From IMG/VR virus record IMGVR_UViG_3300045135_001635: a DNA stretch of 64,000 bases; one strand, given 5' to 3'. The DNA comes from a virus. The notes under the pieces were generated by a model. It searched no databases, had not been told where the DNA came from, and was given only the letters and a program-made list of their open reading frames with translations. A program made the translations under genes and the position numbers. This document shows positions 52,806 through 61,121 of this stretch, piece by piece; position 1 is the stretch's first letter; the number at the start of each line of letters is the position of its first letter.

Positions 52806-53134
52806 TAGTTACCCTTACCTGTTTTAATTACTTCCCACTTACCGTCTGTCGACTTCACTTTTTTGTTTCGAATTGCTACTTGCTTCTCGGCGCTCTCTTT
52901 ACTTTTAGCAAGAACTTCCGCTTCGATTTTACCATTCTTATTTCTAAAGGCGACTGTGTAAGTTCCAGTATCTTTATAACTGACTTTGAATTTTTCGTCA
53001 ACAGAACTTTCTTTTGGTACGCAGTTAGGAACTTCTTTACCGTTCTTCTTCTTCATACCAACTTGTTGATAACCTTTCCAACAAGGGTCTTTTTTATTCT
53101 TTAACGATTCTTGAAGTTCTGAAAAAGTTTTCAT
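52805..53134 (-). CDS. putative internal head protein
   Basis: MKTFSELQE; PCWKGY..VG.K.K.GK.VPNCVP motif. Confidence 0.65.
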   Translation of the reverse strand: MKTFSELQESLKNKKDPCWKGYQQVGMKKKNGKEVPNCVPKESSVDEKFKVSYKDTGTYTVAFRNKNGKIEAEVLAKSKESAEKQVAIRNKKVKSTDGKWEVIKTGKGN

Positions 53135-54240
53135 TATTTTTTTCCTGTAATGTGCGTTCGTAACACATGTGGGTCTAATTTTAAATTATTCTTTCTGATA
53201 ACAGCAGCACTATGATATTCTACCCCGTGTTTAGGGTCTGAGTCAAGCGCTTTCTTGACTAATTTTGCTGCTTGGTCATATGCTTTCTTATTTATAGTTT
53301 TTGCGCCGAACTGTTTGAACGTCTTCATCGTACTCAGTTCTTGTACTGGTTGATTCGGAGTATCCTTTTGATACTTCTTACGAAGTTCATCAGTACCTTC
53401 TTCGCCAGCACCACAATCTTCATCAAGCTTCTCAACAGAGTCTAACCATCTACGAGTCTTAACGCCGTTCGTTTCGGTAATAACATAGTTCGCGCCAAGC
53501 ATTGTAACTTCAGCAAGATTACCGCTTTCTTTAACAACGACAATATCGCCTACAGCAAACAACTCACCTTGTACAAACTTCTCTCTTGTTTCGGAAACAG
53601 GTTGAAGTTCAATATGGTTCTTGAACTCTTTGGTCTCTTTCAGACCCATACCAGAACGTACGTCATTGAATAACTTACGTGCGTCACTATTACTCATAGA
53701 CTTAGATACGCCCTGAGAGAATGTTACAAAGTCATTTTTAGAAGCGTTATCACGTTGCTTCGAAGCAGACATACCTTCAACGCCATCTGCATCAGGATCA
53801 CGTGCGCCAGCAGAAACAACTTTAATAGATTGGAAGTTATAGAATCCGTGACGAGCCTTTTCGCCATTATACTTGTTAAGTAATACGTCAAACTGAGTCA
53901 CACGATCATCACCAACAACCATTGTCACGTTTTTGTAACCTTGGTCATATAACACTACCAACGCATCAATCGCTGTTTTGACTTTCTTATCAGCGACGAT
54001 ATTACGTGCGTGTTTTGGAAACATCTTACGTGTATGCTTAATCTTATCAGTGTATGCTAATGGATTCTTTTTCTTATCTTGAGTCTGTGATACAAATACT
54101 TTGTAATCAGATTTACCTGACTTCTTTGCCAACGTATCCATCACTTTACCGTGACCAATAGTTGGAGGATTCATACGTCCGAATGTGAAGAATACTTCGC
54201 GTTGTTCTTCTACAAGGTATTCCGAAAAATTCTTAATCAT
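53134..54240 (-). CDS. HxGH-family nucleotidyltransferase (cytidylyltransferase-like)
   Basis: FTFGRMNPPTIGH, K.NPL, VVG.DR, SAG.RDPD...V.GMSASK.R; start revised to MIKNFSEYL. Confidence 0.85.
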   Translation of the reverse strand: MIKNFSEYLVEEQREVFFTFGRMNPPTIGHGKVMDTLAKKSGKSDYKVFVSQTQDKKKNPLAYTDKIKHTRKMFPKHARNIVADKKVKTAIDALVVLYDQGYKNVTMVVGDDRVTQFDVLLNKYNGEKARHGFYNFQSIKVVSAGARDPDADGVEGMSASKQRDNASKNDFVTFSQGVSKSMSNSDARKLFNDVRSGMGLKETKEFKNHIELQPVSETREKFVQGELFAVGDIVVVKESGNLAEVTMLGANYVITETNGVKTRRWLDSVEKLDEDCGAGEEGTDELRKKYQKDTPNQPVQELSTMKTFKQFGAKTINKKAYDQAAKLVKKALDSDPKHGVEYHSAAVIRKNNLKLDPHVLRTHITGKK

Positions 54241-54676
54241 TCTTTCCACCACCGCGCTTCTTCTGTATTTCAGCTTGACGCACTTTTGGTAATAACTTAC
54301 GTGCGTTACGCTTAATCTTCTGTTGTGCTTGTGGTTTATCTAAACGTTTCTCAATCTCTTTTTTACGAGCATAAGAAAGTTCAGATTTAGGGATATCTTT
54401 GGTGAGTTTCTTTACAAGCATATTACGCGCATTCTTACGTGCGCGAACCTTTAGCTTATCTAAGTTAGCAACTTTACGTTCAGCACGTTTACGACCGATC
54501 GCAATACGAGCCTTGTTACGCTTCATACGTTGAGCGAGTTTACGTCGTTGAGTAATATCCAACGCTTCGTCGTATGTGCCGTCTTTTCTTTTCTCTGCGT
54601 TCTTAGATAACTGTTCGTCATCAGTACCTAAGTAATCTACAGATGTAAATTGTTTGAATGATAATGGCTTGGCCAT
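54233..54676 (-). CDS. highly basic putative internal/prohead core protein
   Basis: LSFKQF N-terminus; DEAL...QRRK; very Arg/Lys-rich. Confidence 0.6.
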   Translation of the reverse strand: MAKPLSFKQFTSVDYLGTDDEQLSKNAEKRKDGTYDEALDITQRRKLAQRMKRNKARIAIGRKRAERKVANLDKLKVRARKNARNMLVKKLTKDIPKSELSYARKKEIEKRLDKPQAQQKIKRNARKLLPKVRQAEIQKKRGGGKND

Positions 54677-54702
54677 CTTTTCGTTCCTTATTGGTTATCC
54701 CA

Positions 54703-55923
54703 TTACGATTGGGTTTTATCCCAGCCTTTTAATATATTTGGCGAAAAGTTGTTATATGAAAATTCCATACGGTCAACCAATTTCACAGCATCACCACCAA
54801 CAGTATCAATAGCAACATAACCCTCTTCACCAGTTACCTTATAACCGTTCGGAGTCTTTACGAATGTATCAATACGTTTAAGTTCGTTAAGTTTATTTAT
54901 AAGTTTTAATTTCGCTAATACGATGACACGTTGTAGTTCAAATATTTTAATAAGAGAAGCCTTATTAGAAGCCGAGAAGAACTCTAATAGCGCATCTAAC
55001 TTAGCTTGTTGCGCAGACTTACCTTTTTCAGTTTTACGCTTATCAATCTCTTTTTGAAACTTCGCTTCGATAAACTTGATTAAGTTATTAGTATACGCTA
55101 TTACGTCGGAAATTACAACACCTTCTCTCACATGTTTGTTATTAAATTGTTCGATTAACTTTGAAAGTTCTTGATTCGCTTCAAGCTGTCTTAATGTCGT
55201 ACCAGATATTTGATTGAATAGCTTACCTGCTTGAGATAATAGTTTATTGACTTCGTTAGTTTCTTTTTGCGTCATTGTCGCCTTTGACGCGTCAGTTAGC
55301 ATCGCATCCTGAGACCAAACGTCCTTCGTCTTTTTTAGTGCCTTGACGTTAACGCCATAGTCGGCTTTCATATCCTCAAAGGAATTACCCTTGTACGTAG
55401 TGTGCCAAACGATACCAATCTTAGCAGAAAGTATTTCTTTTGCTTGGTCTACAGGTACAGCATAGGCAATAGTATTAGGATGAAAGATTACGTATTTTTG
55501 TCCATCGATAGTTTTACTTTGTAAATCTTTTCGACTAAAAAGAAAGTCACCTTGAATAACACCATTAATACCGAGAGCAGGCAAATATTTAAGAGCGTCT
55601 TTAAGTTTTTCTGCCAAGTCACCGCTCGTATCTTCTTCAACATCTTCATTTGTTTTATATACCTTTGGATTCTTATTAAAGATCCCTTTCTTCGCAACAA
55701 AGAACTTACCGTCCGATGGATCCGTTCCACAAAATATAGCAGGAGCGCCGTCCCATTTTACCGAGACTTTACCGCTCGACTTTCCAGCCAACATATCACG
55801 TAGCGAGCGAAGTGCGAATATCGCTTCACGCGTACCTTTAACACCGCCATATATGACCTTATCCTCGATGTGAGTCATATGCGTGTTCTTTTGTTCTGTA
55901 ATAAAGTTTTTAAAATCTAACAC
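54703..55923 (-). CDS. DUF6267-like protein (ligase-type nucleotidyltransferase motif)
   Basis: KNTHM.HIED, VKWDGAPA (KxDG), QGDFLF, EGYV, KLVDR.EFS..NF. Confidence 0.7.
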   Translation of the reverse strand: MLDFKNFITEQKNTHMTHIEDKVIYGGVKGTREAIFALRSLRDMLAGKSSGKVSVKWDGAPAIFCGTDPSDGKFFVAKKGIFNKNPKVYKTNEDVEEDTSGDLAEKLKDALKYLPALGINGVIQGDFLFSRKDLQSKTIDGQKYVIFHPNTIAYAVPVDQAKEILSAKIGIVWHTTYKGNSFEDMKADYGVNVKALKKTKDVWSQDAMLTDASKATMTQKETNEVNKLLSQAGKLFNQISGTTLRQLEANQELSKLIEQFNNKHVREGVVISDVIAYTNNLIKFIEAKFQKEIDKRKTEKGKSAQQAKLDALLEFFSASNKASLIKIFELQRVIVLAKLKLINKLNELKRIDTFVKTPNGYKVTGEEGYVAIDTVGGDAVKLVDRMEFSYNNFSPNILKGWDKTQS

Positions 55924-57169: not shown

Positions 57170-57177
57170 TATTTATA
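57170..57177 (-). promoter_or_regulatory. late promoter TATAAATA heading the capsid-targeted gene run
   Basis: Exact consensus about 30 nt upstream of 57137. Confidence 0.75.
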
Positions 57178-57889
57178 TATCAAATGATACGTAGGTATTT
57201 TCTTTTTTATACTGACCGATGGTTTCTTTTAAAGGGCGGACCCAATTGTCTCGATGTTCAATAAAGACTTGAGGTGCATGACCGTCAACCGAGATAATGG
57301 TGACGAGTTGAGTGATAGGAATTCCTGTACGTTCTTCCCACATGATAGCATACGCCGTCTCTTGTAAGAAATAGTTTGTGATCCACTTTGTACGTTTAGG
57401 TTTGCGTGAGGTCTTGTAATCTATAATAGAAATCTTGCCGTCAAATACGCCGACGCAATCCACTCGACCAGCAACACCAAGGTGAGTTGAGTATAATGGC
57501 GCTTCTTGAGCGTAGACTAAACTAAGACGTTCGTCTAAGATAGGTTTTAATTGTAAAAAAGAATCGACAAGATCAGGCGTCGCTTTACGGATCTCGGTTT
57601 CGCCTTCGCTATTCTTAACAGGTATCATTAAATAATTAGGATCATTATTCACATACTTTTCGCATATTTCGTGAACAGCTGTACCGCGAGTAGAAGCTCG
57701 ATAAGAGATCTTTGCTGCTTCTTCGTGACCAACGCGTTTTTTCCATTTAGCGATACTATCGCGAGAAAGAATACTCAATACCGTCGTGATTGACGGAAGG
57801 TCTATTCCGTCAGGGGTTTTATAAGTCCGACCAGTAGGTTTGGTCGTCGCTTCCATTTCGTGTAATTCAATTTGTTCATGTTTAAACAT
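57173..57889 (-). CDS. PD-(D/E)XK exonuclease (RecB/Cas4-like)
   Basis: PSITTVL, RGT.VH, E, AGRVD, IIDYKTS, Q..AY. Confidence 0.88.
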   Translation of the reverse strand: MFKHEQIELHEMEATTKPTGRTYKTPDGIDLPSITTVLSILSRDSIAKWKKRVGHEEAAKISYRASTRGTAVHEICEKYVNNDPNYLMIPVKNSEGETEIRKATPDLVDSFLQLKPILDERLSLVYAQEAPLYSTHLGVAGRVDCVGVFDGKISIIDYKTSRKPKRTKWITNYFLQETAYAIMWEERTGIPITQLVTIISVDGHAPQVFIEHRDNWVRPLKETIGQYKKENTYVSFDI

Positions 57890-58446
57890 TATTTAAAATC
57901 CCTCGCAATAAGACTAGATATGAAGTCAACGACTCGTAAAGTATCATCAGAATTTTCGTGATTAAACTCTACGACGCATCCTTCTTCTTCACCGAATAAA
58001 GTTTGCTTATCGCCATACTCCTCAAGGATATTGTTACACTTGGTACGAACTGTTTGAATAAACTTATCACTTTGCTCGGAACCTCGTTCTTGATATCGGC
58101 GTTGGCGTTCTTCATCTGATACGGTAAGGTGTATTATAACCTTATTTTCAAAAATATCCAAGAACTTTTTATTATTTAATCTATCACCTTCACCGACAAC
58201 AATCTCATCAGGATTCGTTGAGAAGTATTCGACCGCTTTAGGGGATACCGCCATCGATAGACGATCGGTGCCGGAGAACGTTTCCCCTTCTTCATACTTA
58301 CCAAGGACTCGAATATTTCTATGAACGTGACTATCAAGTAAGTCAATCGGTTTATCGTGTTTAAACTCGCCTATTCTATTCATCAATGTTTTCATAACAG
58401 TTGACTTACCGCATCCTGGCATACCAATCAAATATATTAACTTCAT
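57889..58446 (-). CDS. P-loop nucleotide kinase associated with base modification
   Basis: GMPGCGKS Walker A; FSGTDRLSMAV; EGDRL; R..RGS.Q lid. Confidence 0.8.
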   Translation of the reverse strand: MKLIYLIGMPGCGKSTVMKTLMNRIGEFKHDKPIDLLDSHVHRNIRVLGKYEEGETFSGTDRLSMAVSPKAVEYFSTNPDEIVVGEGDRLNNKKFLDIFENKVIIHLTVSDEERQRRYQERGSEQSDKFIQTVRTKCNNILEEYGDKQTLFGEEEGCVVEFNHENSDDTLRVVDFISSLIARDFK

Positions 58447-59630
58447 AACATAAACTCCTCTAACACTGTAGGTTTGGCGTTGTTAAAATCATTTTCAAAA
58501 CACCCCCAACATTTATCCATCATTACTGGTTGCCCTGTTAGGCGATAATGATTTTGTTTCTCGGCACTTAGACCGCAGTCCTCAGGGTTATCTTCAAGGC
58601 GAAGCTCCGTAGGAAGATACTTTTTTCTTGCTTCCCAAAAAACTTTATAATCACTTTCGTTTTGCGTAACTTGTTCAGCTTTACGAATACGGTCATGGAA
58701 CATATCCATATAGACGTTCGGGTATCTACGATTAGGACGATGCCAAGATTTATAGCAACAAAGAGTAGATTCTAATGTGAAGTAACTCACGTCACGCTGA
58801 TTTATATCAGGATTAGATTTAAACCTTTCTTTCGCTTCAGTTAATAACTTTTCACCTTCAGCCTCAAGCCAAGTTATATGCTCGGGACGATACCCTTGAA
58901 AATCAGGGTTTAACTTATCGTGCCAATCAAGGTCGTCCCTACCTAATACGACCGATAAACCGTTCCTATGAGATTTAGAACCCTTCATATCATCTAAAAA
59001 TAGTCTATCACAATCAAGGTTGATACCTATAATTCTCTGATACTCAAGATAAGAAAAGGTCGAAAGCCTACCGAATAAAGAGAAGTTATTTATTACCATA
59101 TCCCAACATGATCTAAAGTTTTCGTACTCGTCGTCGCTACTACAAAGATTCGCCCAAAACTCCTCTTGAGTAGAATGTTCACTAAGTACGATCTTCTGAT
59201 AACTTTTTAACGCTTCGCTAAATTTAGATTTAACATATCGGCGATCCATATCCCAAACAAGTTTCGCCCAGTTTTCAAATATGTACTCTTGTATTTCATC
59301 TGCGTCAGAAGTAAACTTAGGGAACTTCTGAAATAAATCCCAAGTCGTAACGATGTTTTGAGATACGCCATTAATATAACTTATCCATAACATATCTTCT
59401 AACGATAAATTATATTCTTCTTTTAGGTAGTCAAACATGAAGTAGACCGCTCCTGGGTGAGAGCGGTACTTTAAATGAAATTCGTAAAAACGTAAAAATG
59501 TTTCTCTACGAAATTCAGGTCTACGGAAGTCAGACCCAGCCACTAAATCTTTTACGGGTTCAATACCGTGTATTTCACAGTAAGAACCTATAGGATGTTT
59601 ACTTTCTAAGTTTATCATAGAAGCACCCAT
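58443..59630 (-). CDS. amino acid:DNA transferase-like (aGPT-Pplase2, HhH-glycosylase fold)
   Basis: D.DRRY.K, FGRLSTFSYLE, GSKSHRNGL, ESTLC.YK...R..RYP..Y.D. Confidence 0.72.
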   Translation of the reverse strand: MGASMINLESKHPIGSYCEIHGIEPVKDLVAGSDFRRPEFRRETFLRFYEFHLKYRSHPGAVYFMFDYLKEEYNLSLEDMLWISYINGVSQNIVTTWDLFQKFPKFTSDADEIQEYIFENWAKLVWDMDRRYVKSKFSEALKSYQKIVLSEHSTQEEFWANLCSSDDEYENFRSCWDMVINNFSLFGRLSTFSYLEYQRIIGINLDCDRLFLDDMKGSKSHRNGLSVVLGRDDLDWHDKLNPDFQGYRPEHITWLEAEGEKLLTEAKERFKSNPDINQRDVSYFTLESTLCCYKSWHRPNRRYPNVYMDMFHDRIRKAEQVTQNESDYKVFWEARKKYLPTELRLEDNPEDCGLSAEKQNHYRLTGQPVMMDKCWGCFENDFNNAKPTVLEEFML

Positions 59631-61066
59631 TAAAAGAAATCTTCTAAAGATGCTTCTACTTTAAACGCGTCGGGGTGATACTCGCGAGTCATATCTTCAC
59701 CGCCGTGTTGAGTAAGGTAATCAAACCATTCTTGCTCAAACCACATATTCGCGCTCACGCCGTTCCAGAAAGGTTTCCACATTGGATGAGACTCATCTTT
59801 ACGGCGGTCATCGACAAACTGACGACGAAGATGTTCGTATTCCCAAGAGCCTAACCCGTCCATATCCTCACGGAAATAGAATACAAGCGACATACGTAGC
59901 ATATTATCTTCGCCTGATTCAGGAGACTCAATAGGAGTATTACCGTGTATAATACGCATATTATCTACAAGTAACAAGTCGCCAGGACGGCAGTTAATCG
60001 CAGCACGTACTTCAGGAGTTACGAGATAGCCACCATTCCAATCTTTACCGTCTTTTGTTACAACTGTTAAGTTGCTGAACCCTTCATTTAAAGATCCAGC
60101 GTCGCGGTGACAAGCCATACGAGCATTACGGTCTTTAGTAGTAGTATTTACAGTGATAGTCGTAAACGTAGTATCTTCGCCGATTAAGAAACGATTATCC
60201 AAACGATCAGCAAACTCTTTTTGGGCAGCGTAACGCTGAGGAAGTAAACGATTCATTTCTTTATCTAGTTTACGGGCGAATGGATAGCACTTCTCGAACT
60301 TTTTACGGTTGTAATCGGTATAAGCGGTGGCGCGACCGTAAGGGATACGAGGATAACGACCATAAAAACCAGCGATGCCCGACCATAATGGGGTAGCGTA
60401 TGAGGTTGAAGAGATCATTGTAGTGCGAATCTTTTTAGCGTACTCAACTGCTTCTGTAACGGGCATGTTTTTAAAACGTTCAATCGCTACGTCAAAGAAG
60501 TTTTCGTATACACCAAACTCGCCCTCAATCTTAGAACGTAGCCATACAGAACCGCGAGTATCATGCTTAGAGTTTTCGTGCTTCTTAAAGATTTCTTCTA
60601 ACGGATCAGATCCATCCAAACTTGCTGGTTGACCTTGCTCAAAATACTTTAAGATATCTTCTTGTAAAGGGATAACCCAGTCACGCGCATCACTCTTAGA
60701 ACCTTCAGGGCGAGGACCAGCTGCGAGACCACGGTTGTTAGATTTACCTGCTGCGTCGTACAACCCCTCAAAAGCGCCTAGCTGTTCTTCTGGTGTAAAT
60801 ACGTTTTTACGAAACTTAAACGCGACACGACTTTCATCAAGACAACCTAGACATTCATTGTCGCAAGTTGTTGATGTCGTCATATCACACTCGGGGGGAA
60901 GGTAAAAATCCGCGTCATGGTCGATTAGAATATCGTACGAGGTATCGTCGACGAACTGACCTAATACTTTTTCTTCGTCTTCAACGAATAATGCGATGTA
61001 GACCGCTTGACCTTCATCGCCTTGATACTTCTGCCACTGGCGACCGCCAATAGTTATTAATTCCAT
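59630..61066 (-). CDS. TET/JBP-family Fe(II)/2-oxoglutarate dioxygenase
   Basis: SGIAGFY.RYPRIPYGR.T.YT, T.FTTITVN, A.HRDAG (HxD), GDLLL, HGNT, R.SLV.YFRE. Confidence 0.85.
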   Translation of the reverse strand: MELITIGGRQWQKYQGDEGQAVYIALFVEDEEKVLGQFVDDTSYDILIDHDADFYLPPECDMTTSTTCDNECLGCLDESRVAFKFRKNVFTPEEQLGAFEGLYDAAGKSNNRGLAAGPRPEGSKSDARDWVIPLQEDILKYFEQGQPASLDGSDPLEEIFKKHENSKHDTRGSVWLRSKIEGEFGVYENFFDVAIERFKNMPVTEAVEYAKKIRTTMISSTSYATPLWSGIAGFYGRYPRIPYGRATAYTDYNRKKFEKCYPFARKLDKEMNRLLPQRYAAQKEFADRLDNRFLIGEDTTFTTITVNTTTKDRNARMACHRDAGSLNEGFSNLTVVTKDGKDWNGGYLVTPEVRAAINCRPGDLLLVDNMRIIHGNTPIESPESGEDNMLRMSLVFYFREDMDGLGSWEYEHLRRQFVDDRRKDESHPMWKPFWNGVSANMWFEQEWFDYLTQHGGEDMTREYHPDAFKVEASLEDFF

Positions 61067-61092
61067 AATATACTCCTATATTGTATACATCT

Positions 61093-61121
61093 ATTATAGC
61101 ATACTTTTTCAAATTTGTAAA
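61093..61121 (-). promoter_or_regulatory. sigma70-type promoter for the TET/JBP operon
   Basis: TTTACA-17bp-TATAAT, then AGGAG SD. Confidence 0.75.

Follow-up and report, generated by a model that had tools for sequence, protein, structure and literature searches.

A predicted post-replicative thymine-hypermodification operon in a marine T4-like myovirus

The viral record IMGVR_UViG_3300045135_001635 of IMG/VR was analysed over a stretch of 64,000 nucleotides (nt), hereafter the window, which encodes on its minus strand a TET/JBP-family dioxygenase, an amino acid:DNA transferase (AADT) and a P-loop kinase in three coupled genes (Table 1). We consider it probable, at roughly three chances in four (0.77), that these genes belong to an early operon by which a marine T4-like myovirus hypermodifies thymine after replication. 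According to this scheme, ordinary thymine would be used in phage DNA replication, and the dioxygenase, using Fe(II) and 2-oxoglutarate (2OG) with the ligands H320-x-D322, H374 and R391, would then hydroxylate the C5-methyl group of thymine in DNA to give 5-hydroxymethyluracil (5hmU). The kinase would phosphorylate the new hydroxyl, yielding 5-phosphomethyl-deoxyuridine (5-phosphomethyl-dU), and Cys291 of the AADT, with the assistance of Glu287, would attack C6 and expel the phosphate, so that a free amino acid or amine could add to the exocyclic methylene left behind. As an extension of this scheme, both the dioxygenase and the transferase would be tethered by their tails to the sliding clamp and act just behind the replication fork. 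Since the operon contains no gene for a tailoring enzyme (pyridoxal phosphate (PLP), radical SAM, flavin adenine dinucleotide or GNAT type), the end product is probably a simple adduct of thymine with an amino acid or amine.

The design of this pathway is already published, and the window is a further example of it. Lee et al. (Nucleic Acids Res 2021/22; PMC8989533) described contigs in which TET_JBP replaces the deoxyuridine monophosphate (dUMP) hydroxymethylase beside thymidine-hypermodification genes, and they inferred that 5hmU is made in situ by the dioxygenase for the adjacent kinase and transferase (their Fig. 2, sequences 22-25). Their clusters, which are predicted only, have the same three enzyme types and the same hydroxymethylase-replacement logic as the window, and the window differs from them in its kinase family (PF18751 instead of PF18748), its T4-like myovirus genome and its polymerase-like tails. 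O'Toole et al. (PNAS 2026; PMC13229309) reported that phage 5mYOX enzymes oxidise thymine in DNA post-replicatively and with sequence preferences, distinguished ParB-dependent and ParB-independent subclasses, and linked clade C1 to kinases and AADTs. Like their thymine dioxygenases (clades C1 and C2), the window enzyme is a TET/JBP protein without a neighbouring C5-methyltransferase (C5-MTase) and is linked to a P-loop kinase and an AADT; unlike them, it has no ParB and is a long form of 478 amino acids (aa) with a large helical insert. The original prediction for this DNA had proposed the same route of dioxygenase-fed 5hmU, kinase and transferase, for which sequence, fold and context gave support, but which was not new. 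Its statement that such neighbourhoods had been predicted while no product had been characterised holds for the literature searched, in which we found no characterisation of the end product of the full dioxygenase-fed AADT route.

What sets the window apart is that its cassette is minimal and lies in a T4-like setting without ParB, that its kinase belongs to PF18751 and that two of its enzymes have polymerase-like tails. The cassette represents a T4-like, ParB-less, minimal three-gene case in a pathway class whose final products are uncharacterised and, because tailoring genes are absent, a simple system for learning what the dioxygenase-fed AADT route installs. The tails offer a concrete idea of how post-replicative modification may be aimed at newly made phage DNA and hint at a reason for the failure of some phage dioxygenases in heterologous assays; if this is true, supplying such dioxygenases with their cognate clamp and clamp loader could open them to study and to use as DNA-modifying tools.

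The three enzymes and their relatives

The dioxygenase matched Pfam Tet_JBP (PF12851) with an E value of 2.7e-15 (56.4 bits, cut-off 34.9), and its motifs CHRDAG, IIHGNT and RMSLVFYF were read from the sequence. According to the comparison of 45 sequences, the iron ligands H320, D322 and H374 are invariant and the 2OG-binding R391 is kept in at least 90%. The structure model (predicted local distance difference test (pLDDT) 90) has the TET-type double-stranded beta-helix fold, and its top Foldseek matches were NgTET1, CcTet and TET2. When the model was superposed, Z was 20.4 with human TET2 (root-mean-square deviation (rmsd) 3.8, 267 residues) and 18.3 with Naegleria NgTET1 (245 of 266 residues). 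These alignments run from residue 1 to about residue 420 (422), and the helical insert of the long form lies at about residues 115-225. The presence of a fused ParB or other domain in the 250 residues before the Pfam match was considered and ruled out, because the N-terminal strands align to the NgTET1/TET2 core. ParB_N was not matched in the upstream open reading frames (ORFs), in the large ORFs of the window or in any of five related records (0/5), and tblastn with the mycobacteriophage ParB gave no match. A ParB gene beside the dioxygenase gene, which marks the ParB-dependent 5mYOX enzymes, is therefore not seen here, and the identity to the ParB-associated mycobacteriophage enzyme is only 29% over 108 residues. 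From its gene context, considered below, the protein is predicted to be a DNA enzyme converting thymine to 5hmU.

The middle protein was placed through its homologues and its fold. A metagenomic protein 81% identical to it (P0122) matched PF18724 (ADDT) with 58.4 bits (cut-off 26.2), and most close homologues of the transferase carry PF18724 in precomputed data. The identity of the transferase to a PF18724 protein of the related phage locus L010 is 28% (E 2e-36), and that to an Ackermannviridae protein annotated aGPT-Pplase2 is 26-28%. The structure model (pLDDT 92) superposed on PaMx11 gp46 (PUGT, PDB 8z2m) with Z 17.5 and rmsd 3.5 over 259 of 287 residues; gp46 is a 5-phosphomethyl-dU glycinyltransferase with the residues Glu243 and Cys247 (PMC11472151). 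The transferase contains the motifs FGRLSTFSY and LESTLCCYKSW, in the second of which E287 and C291, invariant in 34 sequences, have the same spacing (E-x-x-x-C) as the Glu/Cys pair of gp46. In M6 gp51 the aligned counterpart of LESTLCCYKS is VETVLCKWKS, whose Cys and Glu are both essential (PMC8989533). The fold search alone makes the connection to solved structures, as neither phmmer nor a 34-sequence profile linked the protein to any of them. The fold (Z 17.5), the Glu-x3-Cys motif and the kinase partner are thus common to the window and the AADTs PaMx11 gp46, M6 gp51 and ViI gp247, whereas the identity is about 12% with no link by profile search, and the phages PaMx11, M6 and ViI differ from the window in making 5-hydroxymethyl-deoxyuridine (5hmdU) before replication by a dUMP hydroxymethylase and in having tailoring enzymes. 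Judged by the PF18724 of its homologues, the Glu/Cys pair and a fold confirmed in the structure model, the middle protein is assigned to the AADT family.

The kinase matched Ploopntkinase3 (PF18751) with an E value of 7.6e-16 (58.6 bits, cut-off 27) and has the Walker A motif GMPGCGKST. It is 45% identical to the kinase encoded beside the PF18724 gene in L010. M6 gp54, a proven 5hmdU DNA kinase, matches PF18748, a family that the window kinase does not match. The Walker A at the N-terminus of the window kinase and the GxY..G.D stretch behind it align with M6 gp54. We infer the role of a 5hmU DNA kinase from the near-constant position of the gene after the AADT gene, described below, and from the need of the AADT for a phosphate leaving group. 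The protein may work like the 5-hmU DNA kinases (5-HMUDKs) though it is outside that family.

The arrangement of the cassette was compared in 80 IMG/VR loci, fetched as those encoding relatives of the transferase. Of these loci, 56 extend far enough upstream to be judged, and 52 of the 56 have a TET/JBP gene there in the same orientation; in two more it lies downstream. The kinase gene comes after the AADT gene in 71 of 74 loci, as a rule with an overlap or a gap of no more than about 50 nt. In the mycobacteriophage Prince, a ParB-like gene is followed by the dioxygenase, AADT and kinase genes in this order (genes 2-4). This cluster B cassette (Prince genes 1-4, given as ParB-like, thymidine hydroxylase, AADT-like and kinase) and that of Rhodococcus phage Tonitrus (PMC11955845) have the same gene order as the window, and the cluster B proteins are 41% (AADT) and 31% (kinase, Prince gp4) identical to those of the window. 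These phages differ in being siphoviruses whose cassette is preceded by a ParB gene, whose dioxygenase is short (324 aa) and whose proteins lack clamp-type tails.

Many of the relatives have extra genes between the dioxygenase and AADT genes, namely two unnamed families, a PLP-type enzyme and a GNAT protein, and the minimal form without inserted genes was found in the window, L019 and L021-L025. Close relatives of the long dioxygenase also have other partners: in L006 (75% identical) the gene lies beside that of the TET-associated glycosyltransferase TAGT, and in L010 (69% identical) beside GATase, GNAT, ADDT and kinase genes. Judged from these gene contents, the system is modular, in line with the proposal of Lee et al. 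The two unnamed families, neither of which has a Pfam match or a homologue in the window, deserve separate mention. Family X, of about 260 aa, is encoded at L050:7244-8020, L041:1548-2333, L016:6062-6847 and L067:7244-8023, and its members end in the polymerase-like tail ..STLDSFF; family Y, of about 335-380 aa, is encoded at L037:1730-2737, L088:6318-7460, L066:2778-3920 and L012:2289-3416.

Polymerase-like tails and the replication clamp

The dioxygenase and the transferase each end, after a linker of low confidence in the structure models, in a short tail of the type found in T4-type gp43 (Table 1), and the kinase has no such tail. T4 gp43 ends in KASLDFLFG, and this tail binds the gp45 clamp (PMC6212786). 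The gp45-binding motif of T4 gp43, gp55 and DNA ligase (..SLDFLFG, ..SLDFLYEAND and LDFLF; PMC6212786) resembles the [ST]-L-[ED]-x-F-[FL] sequence at the very C-terminus of the window enzymes; in T4 it is carried by replication and transcription proteins, whereas in the window the similar tail belongs to predicted base-modification enzymes. In each relative checked, the tail pattern of gp43 was also that of the cassette. The endings were SSLEDFFV (gp43), ATLEDFF (TET) and STLEEFFA (TAGT) in L006; ATLEDFFG (gp43) and STLDSFF (both TET and accessory family X) in G001; SSLEGLFG (gp43), SSLESLFG (TET) and VGLEGLFE (AADT) in G002; and TTLEDFFG (gp43) and NLNDFLGE (TET-like) in Methylophilales phage Melnitz. 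Besides the cassette enzymes, relatives bear this tail on TAGT, the glycosyltransferase partner, and on an accessory protein without a name.

A strict tail motif occurred in 14 of 21 long dioxygenases and 11 of 52 transferases. Among kinases the count was 3 of 49, and among other ORFs 17 of 492, the majority of these 17 being members of accessory family X. The T4 DNA glucosyltransferases do not have the motif; according to a preprint of 2025, they show no binding to gp45. O'Toole et al. (PMC13229309) make no mention of the replication clamp. From the sequence resemblance we tentatively propose, rating it slightly short of an even chance, that in T4-like phages the thymine dioxygenase and the AADT may be gp45 clients recruited by polymerase-like tails, which would couple hypermodification to the fork. 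With the same reserve and by analogy, gp45 would take the role that the ParB CTPase clamp has for the ParB-dependent siphovirus dioxygenases. If true, clamp tethering could explain the apparent inactivity of ParB-less clade C1 enzymes expressed alone in E. coli.

A tail of the same kind as those of the dioxygenase, the transferase and related gp43 was also observed at the end (..EALEKFLGA) of a 99-aa ORF without a Pfam match (window:62838-63137, minus strand). The size of this ORF recalls that of T4 gp33, a clamp-binding late-transcription co-activator.

Thymine or cytosine, and other readings

The substrate was considered from the gene content of the window and of five related IMG/VR records that contain the cassette, including a complete genome of 173 kb; these records were searched in place of the virus's own full genome. 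The original prediction had argued for thymine on the ground that the window has no C5-MTase, and indeed no C5-MTase, ThyA-type enzyme or ThyX was found in its 64 kb. In the related records the ThyA family was absent (0/5), ThyX was present in four and a C5-MTase in one. The occurrence of ThyX without ThyA fits phages that would make deoxythymidine monophosphate, build in thymine and oxidise it afterwards.

One alternative is a cytosine route, in which a C5-MTase encoded elsewhere in the genome would make 5-methylcytosine (5mC), the dioxygenase would oxidise it to 5-hydroxymethylcytosine (5hmC), and the kinase and transferase would decorate 5hmC. Phage TETs of clades A and B act via 5mC (PMC8256090), and for some contigs Burke et al. 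proposed that a kinase acts on 5hmC. Melnitz, a T4-like phage in culture, encodes a C5-MTase side by side with a TET-like protein and a kinase of the window's family, and one of the five related records has a C5-MTase. Against this, a C5-MTase is found neither in the window nor beside the operon, nor in the complete 173-kb relative that has the cassette; the characterised AADTs all act on 5-phosphomethyl-dU (PMC8989533), and Melnitz has no AADT. We regard the cytosine route as improbable.

The Melnitz region itself (L106; MZ577098, 1-6531) encodes, in this order, gp43, a C5-methyltransferase, a TET-like protein of 328 aa that ends in a clamp-type tail, an unassigned protein of 427 aa and a Ploopntkinase3-type kinase, and an AADT is not present in it. 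Melnitz looks like a growable cousin using the 5mC route.

Little chance is likewise given to the reading that makes the small P-loop protein a nucleotide kinase or an ATPase related to packaging, with the dioxygenase and transferase using a different chemistry. It would suit the Pfam family of the protein, which is not that of the proven 5-HMUDKs, the labels in database records (adenylate kinase or small terminase, phrog_800 being labelled small terminase), and the occurrence of the family alone in most cluster-B mycobacteriophages. It does not suit the almost constant place of the gene behind the AADT gene, the phosphate leaving group required by the AADT mechanism, or the alignment of the Walker A and GxY..G.D stretch with M6 gp54. 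Finally, that the middle protein is a DNA glycosylase, so that the cassette oxidises and excises bases or 5hmU or its phosphate is the end product without group transfer, is very improbable: the transferase fold is of the helix-hairpin-helix glycosylase type, with Ogg/AGOG 8-oxoguanine glycosylases matching at Z 8-9, and one mycobacteriophage record labels a homologue 'DNA glycosylase', but the glycinyltransferase PUGT is by far the best structure match (Z 17.5 against only 9.3 for the next), the Glu/Cys pair essential in transferases is invariant, and a kinase making a leaving group has no place in simple excision.

Several points weigh against the thymine pathway proposed here, the most general being that the chemistry of every step is deduced from homology and context. 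A search of hidden Markov models had been suggested for all three proteins, and it retrieved Tet_JBP and a P-loop kinase family, whereas the 395-aa transferase itself had no Pfam match, even at E 10. The kinase family retrieved is PF18751; PF18748 (HMUDK_HMUD1), the characterised 5-HMUDK family, did not match, and the similarity to M6 gp54 is bare (pairwise E 0.002). In most cluster-B mycobacteriophages (several hundred), a PF18751-type kinase is encoded by itself as gene 1, while an AADT homologue was found in only 27 mycobacteriophage records. In Melnitz such a kinase lies near a C5-MTase and a TET-like gene without an AADT, and the family is therefore not bound to thymine alone. ParB-less clade C1 dioxygenases were reported to be inactive in E. 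coli (PMC13229309). The survey of the virus's own genome for a C5-MTase or hydroxymethylase covers the 64-kb window, and clamp binding is read from sequence resemblance to gp43 of relatives, the virus's own gp43 and gp45 lying outside the window.

Operon limits, neighbouring genes and genome setting

The operon was found much as first described: the single sigma70-type promoter is present as a consensus match, the three minus-strand ORFs are exactly those claimed, and the motifs of dioxygenase, transferase and kinase said to be intact can all be read. The promoter has a TG upstream of TATAAT, and an AGGAG Shine-Dalgarno sequence lies between it and the ATG at 61066; promoter-like sites in the region numbered 32 against 26 expected, so that it counts as a consensus match alone. 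The dioxygenase and transferase genes meet at TAATG (1-nt overlap) and the transferase and kinase genes at ATGA (4-nt overlap). The extent of the operon had to be revised, as a fourth gene, for an exonuclease, was missing from the original prediction although it is coupled like the other three, again through TAATG with a 1-nt overlap with the kinase gene. No homologue of the exonuclease was found in the 80 related loci, so it is not a conserved member of the cassette. Since the T4-type late promoter box TATAAATA lies on the exonuclease stop codon, the early unit probably ends there and the next, late unit starts; over the whole window the motif of this box occurred at 12 sites against 7.5 expected, which is no enrichment.

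Table 1. Positions of the operon features in the window
Feature	Position	Strand	Basis or remark
Sigma70-type (T4 early-like) promoter, TTTACA-17-TGnTATAAT	61093..61121	-	Consensus match only, 11/12
TET/JBP-family Fe(II)/2OG dioxygenase (5mYOX), 478 aa	59630..61066	-	Pfam PF12851, fold model
Dioxygenase tail ..ASLEDFF (..EASLEDFF), gp45-clamp-binding-like	59633..59653	-	Resemblance to T4-type gp43 tails
Amino acid:DNA transferase (AADT, formerly aGPT-Pplase clade 2), 395 aa	58443..59630	-	Close homologues with PF18724, fold
Transferase tail ..LEEFML (..TVLEEFML), same type	58446..58463	-	Resemblance to T4-type gp43 tails
P-loop kinase (Pfam Ploopntkinase3), 185 aa	57889..58446	-	Pfam; predicted 5-hmU DNA kinase
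PD-(D/E)XK exonuclease	57173..57889	-	PDDEXK_1, phrog_298; probably last gene of early unit
T4-type late promoter box TATAAATA	57170..57177	-	Overlies exonuclease stop codon

The genes downstream of the kinase gene were considered as members of the pathway and rejected. They encode the exonuclease, a 404-aa unnamed protein, a DUF6267 protein and a cytidylyltransferase, and they have no homologues in the related loci except for the last two, which occur as a pair in the close relative L012; all but the exonuclease gene are cut off from the operon by the T4 late box. The DUF6267 and cytidylyltransferase-like proteins are encoded next to each other downstream of the cassette both in the window (53134-55923, minus strand) and in L012 (7490-9577), and PHROG 455 joins the two in one fused profile.

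Pfam scans of the larger ORFs identified in the window the T4-type baseplate and tail proteins gp5, gp6, gp8, gp9/10, gp53 and the tail-tube cap, and also gp32, ribonucleotide reductase and PhoH. These structural and replication proteins indicate that the window is part of a T4-like myovirus, and the virus is an uncultured marine one. A megablast search of 50,697 phage records with the locus gave no match and hence no close cultured relative; by its dioxygenase, the nearest database phage is the Kyanoviridae phage C48C1, with 68% amino-acid identity.

Farther from the operon, at a distance of about 20 kb, the region at window:28862-39659 contains glycosyltransferase-like genes and genes for a radical SAM/SPASM enzyme, a carbamoyltransferase and a methyltransferase. 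The last three (33-39 kb) were considered as tailoring enzymes and rejected, as they lie 20 kb away in a glycosyltransferase-rich block and no link to the operon was found. A 221-aa ORF adjoining the ribonucleotide reductase genes (window:43534-44199, minus strand) showed a weak, partial match to QueC (E 5e-8), confined to the C-terminal third of the profile. In the relative G004 (L096 and L097), the family-B DNA polymerase is split over two open frames of 435 and 444 aa.

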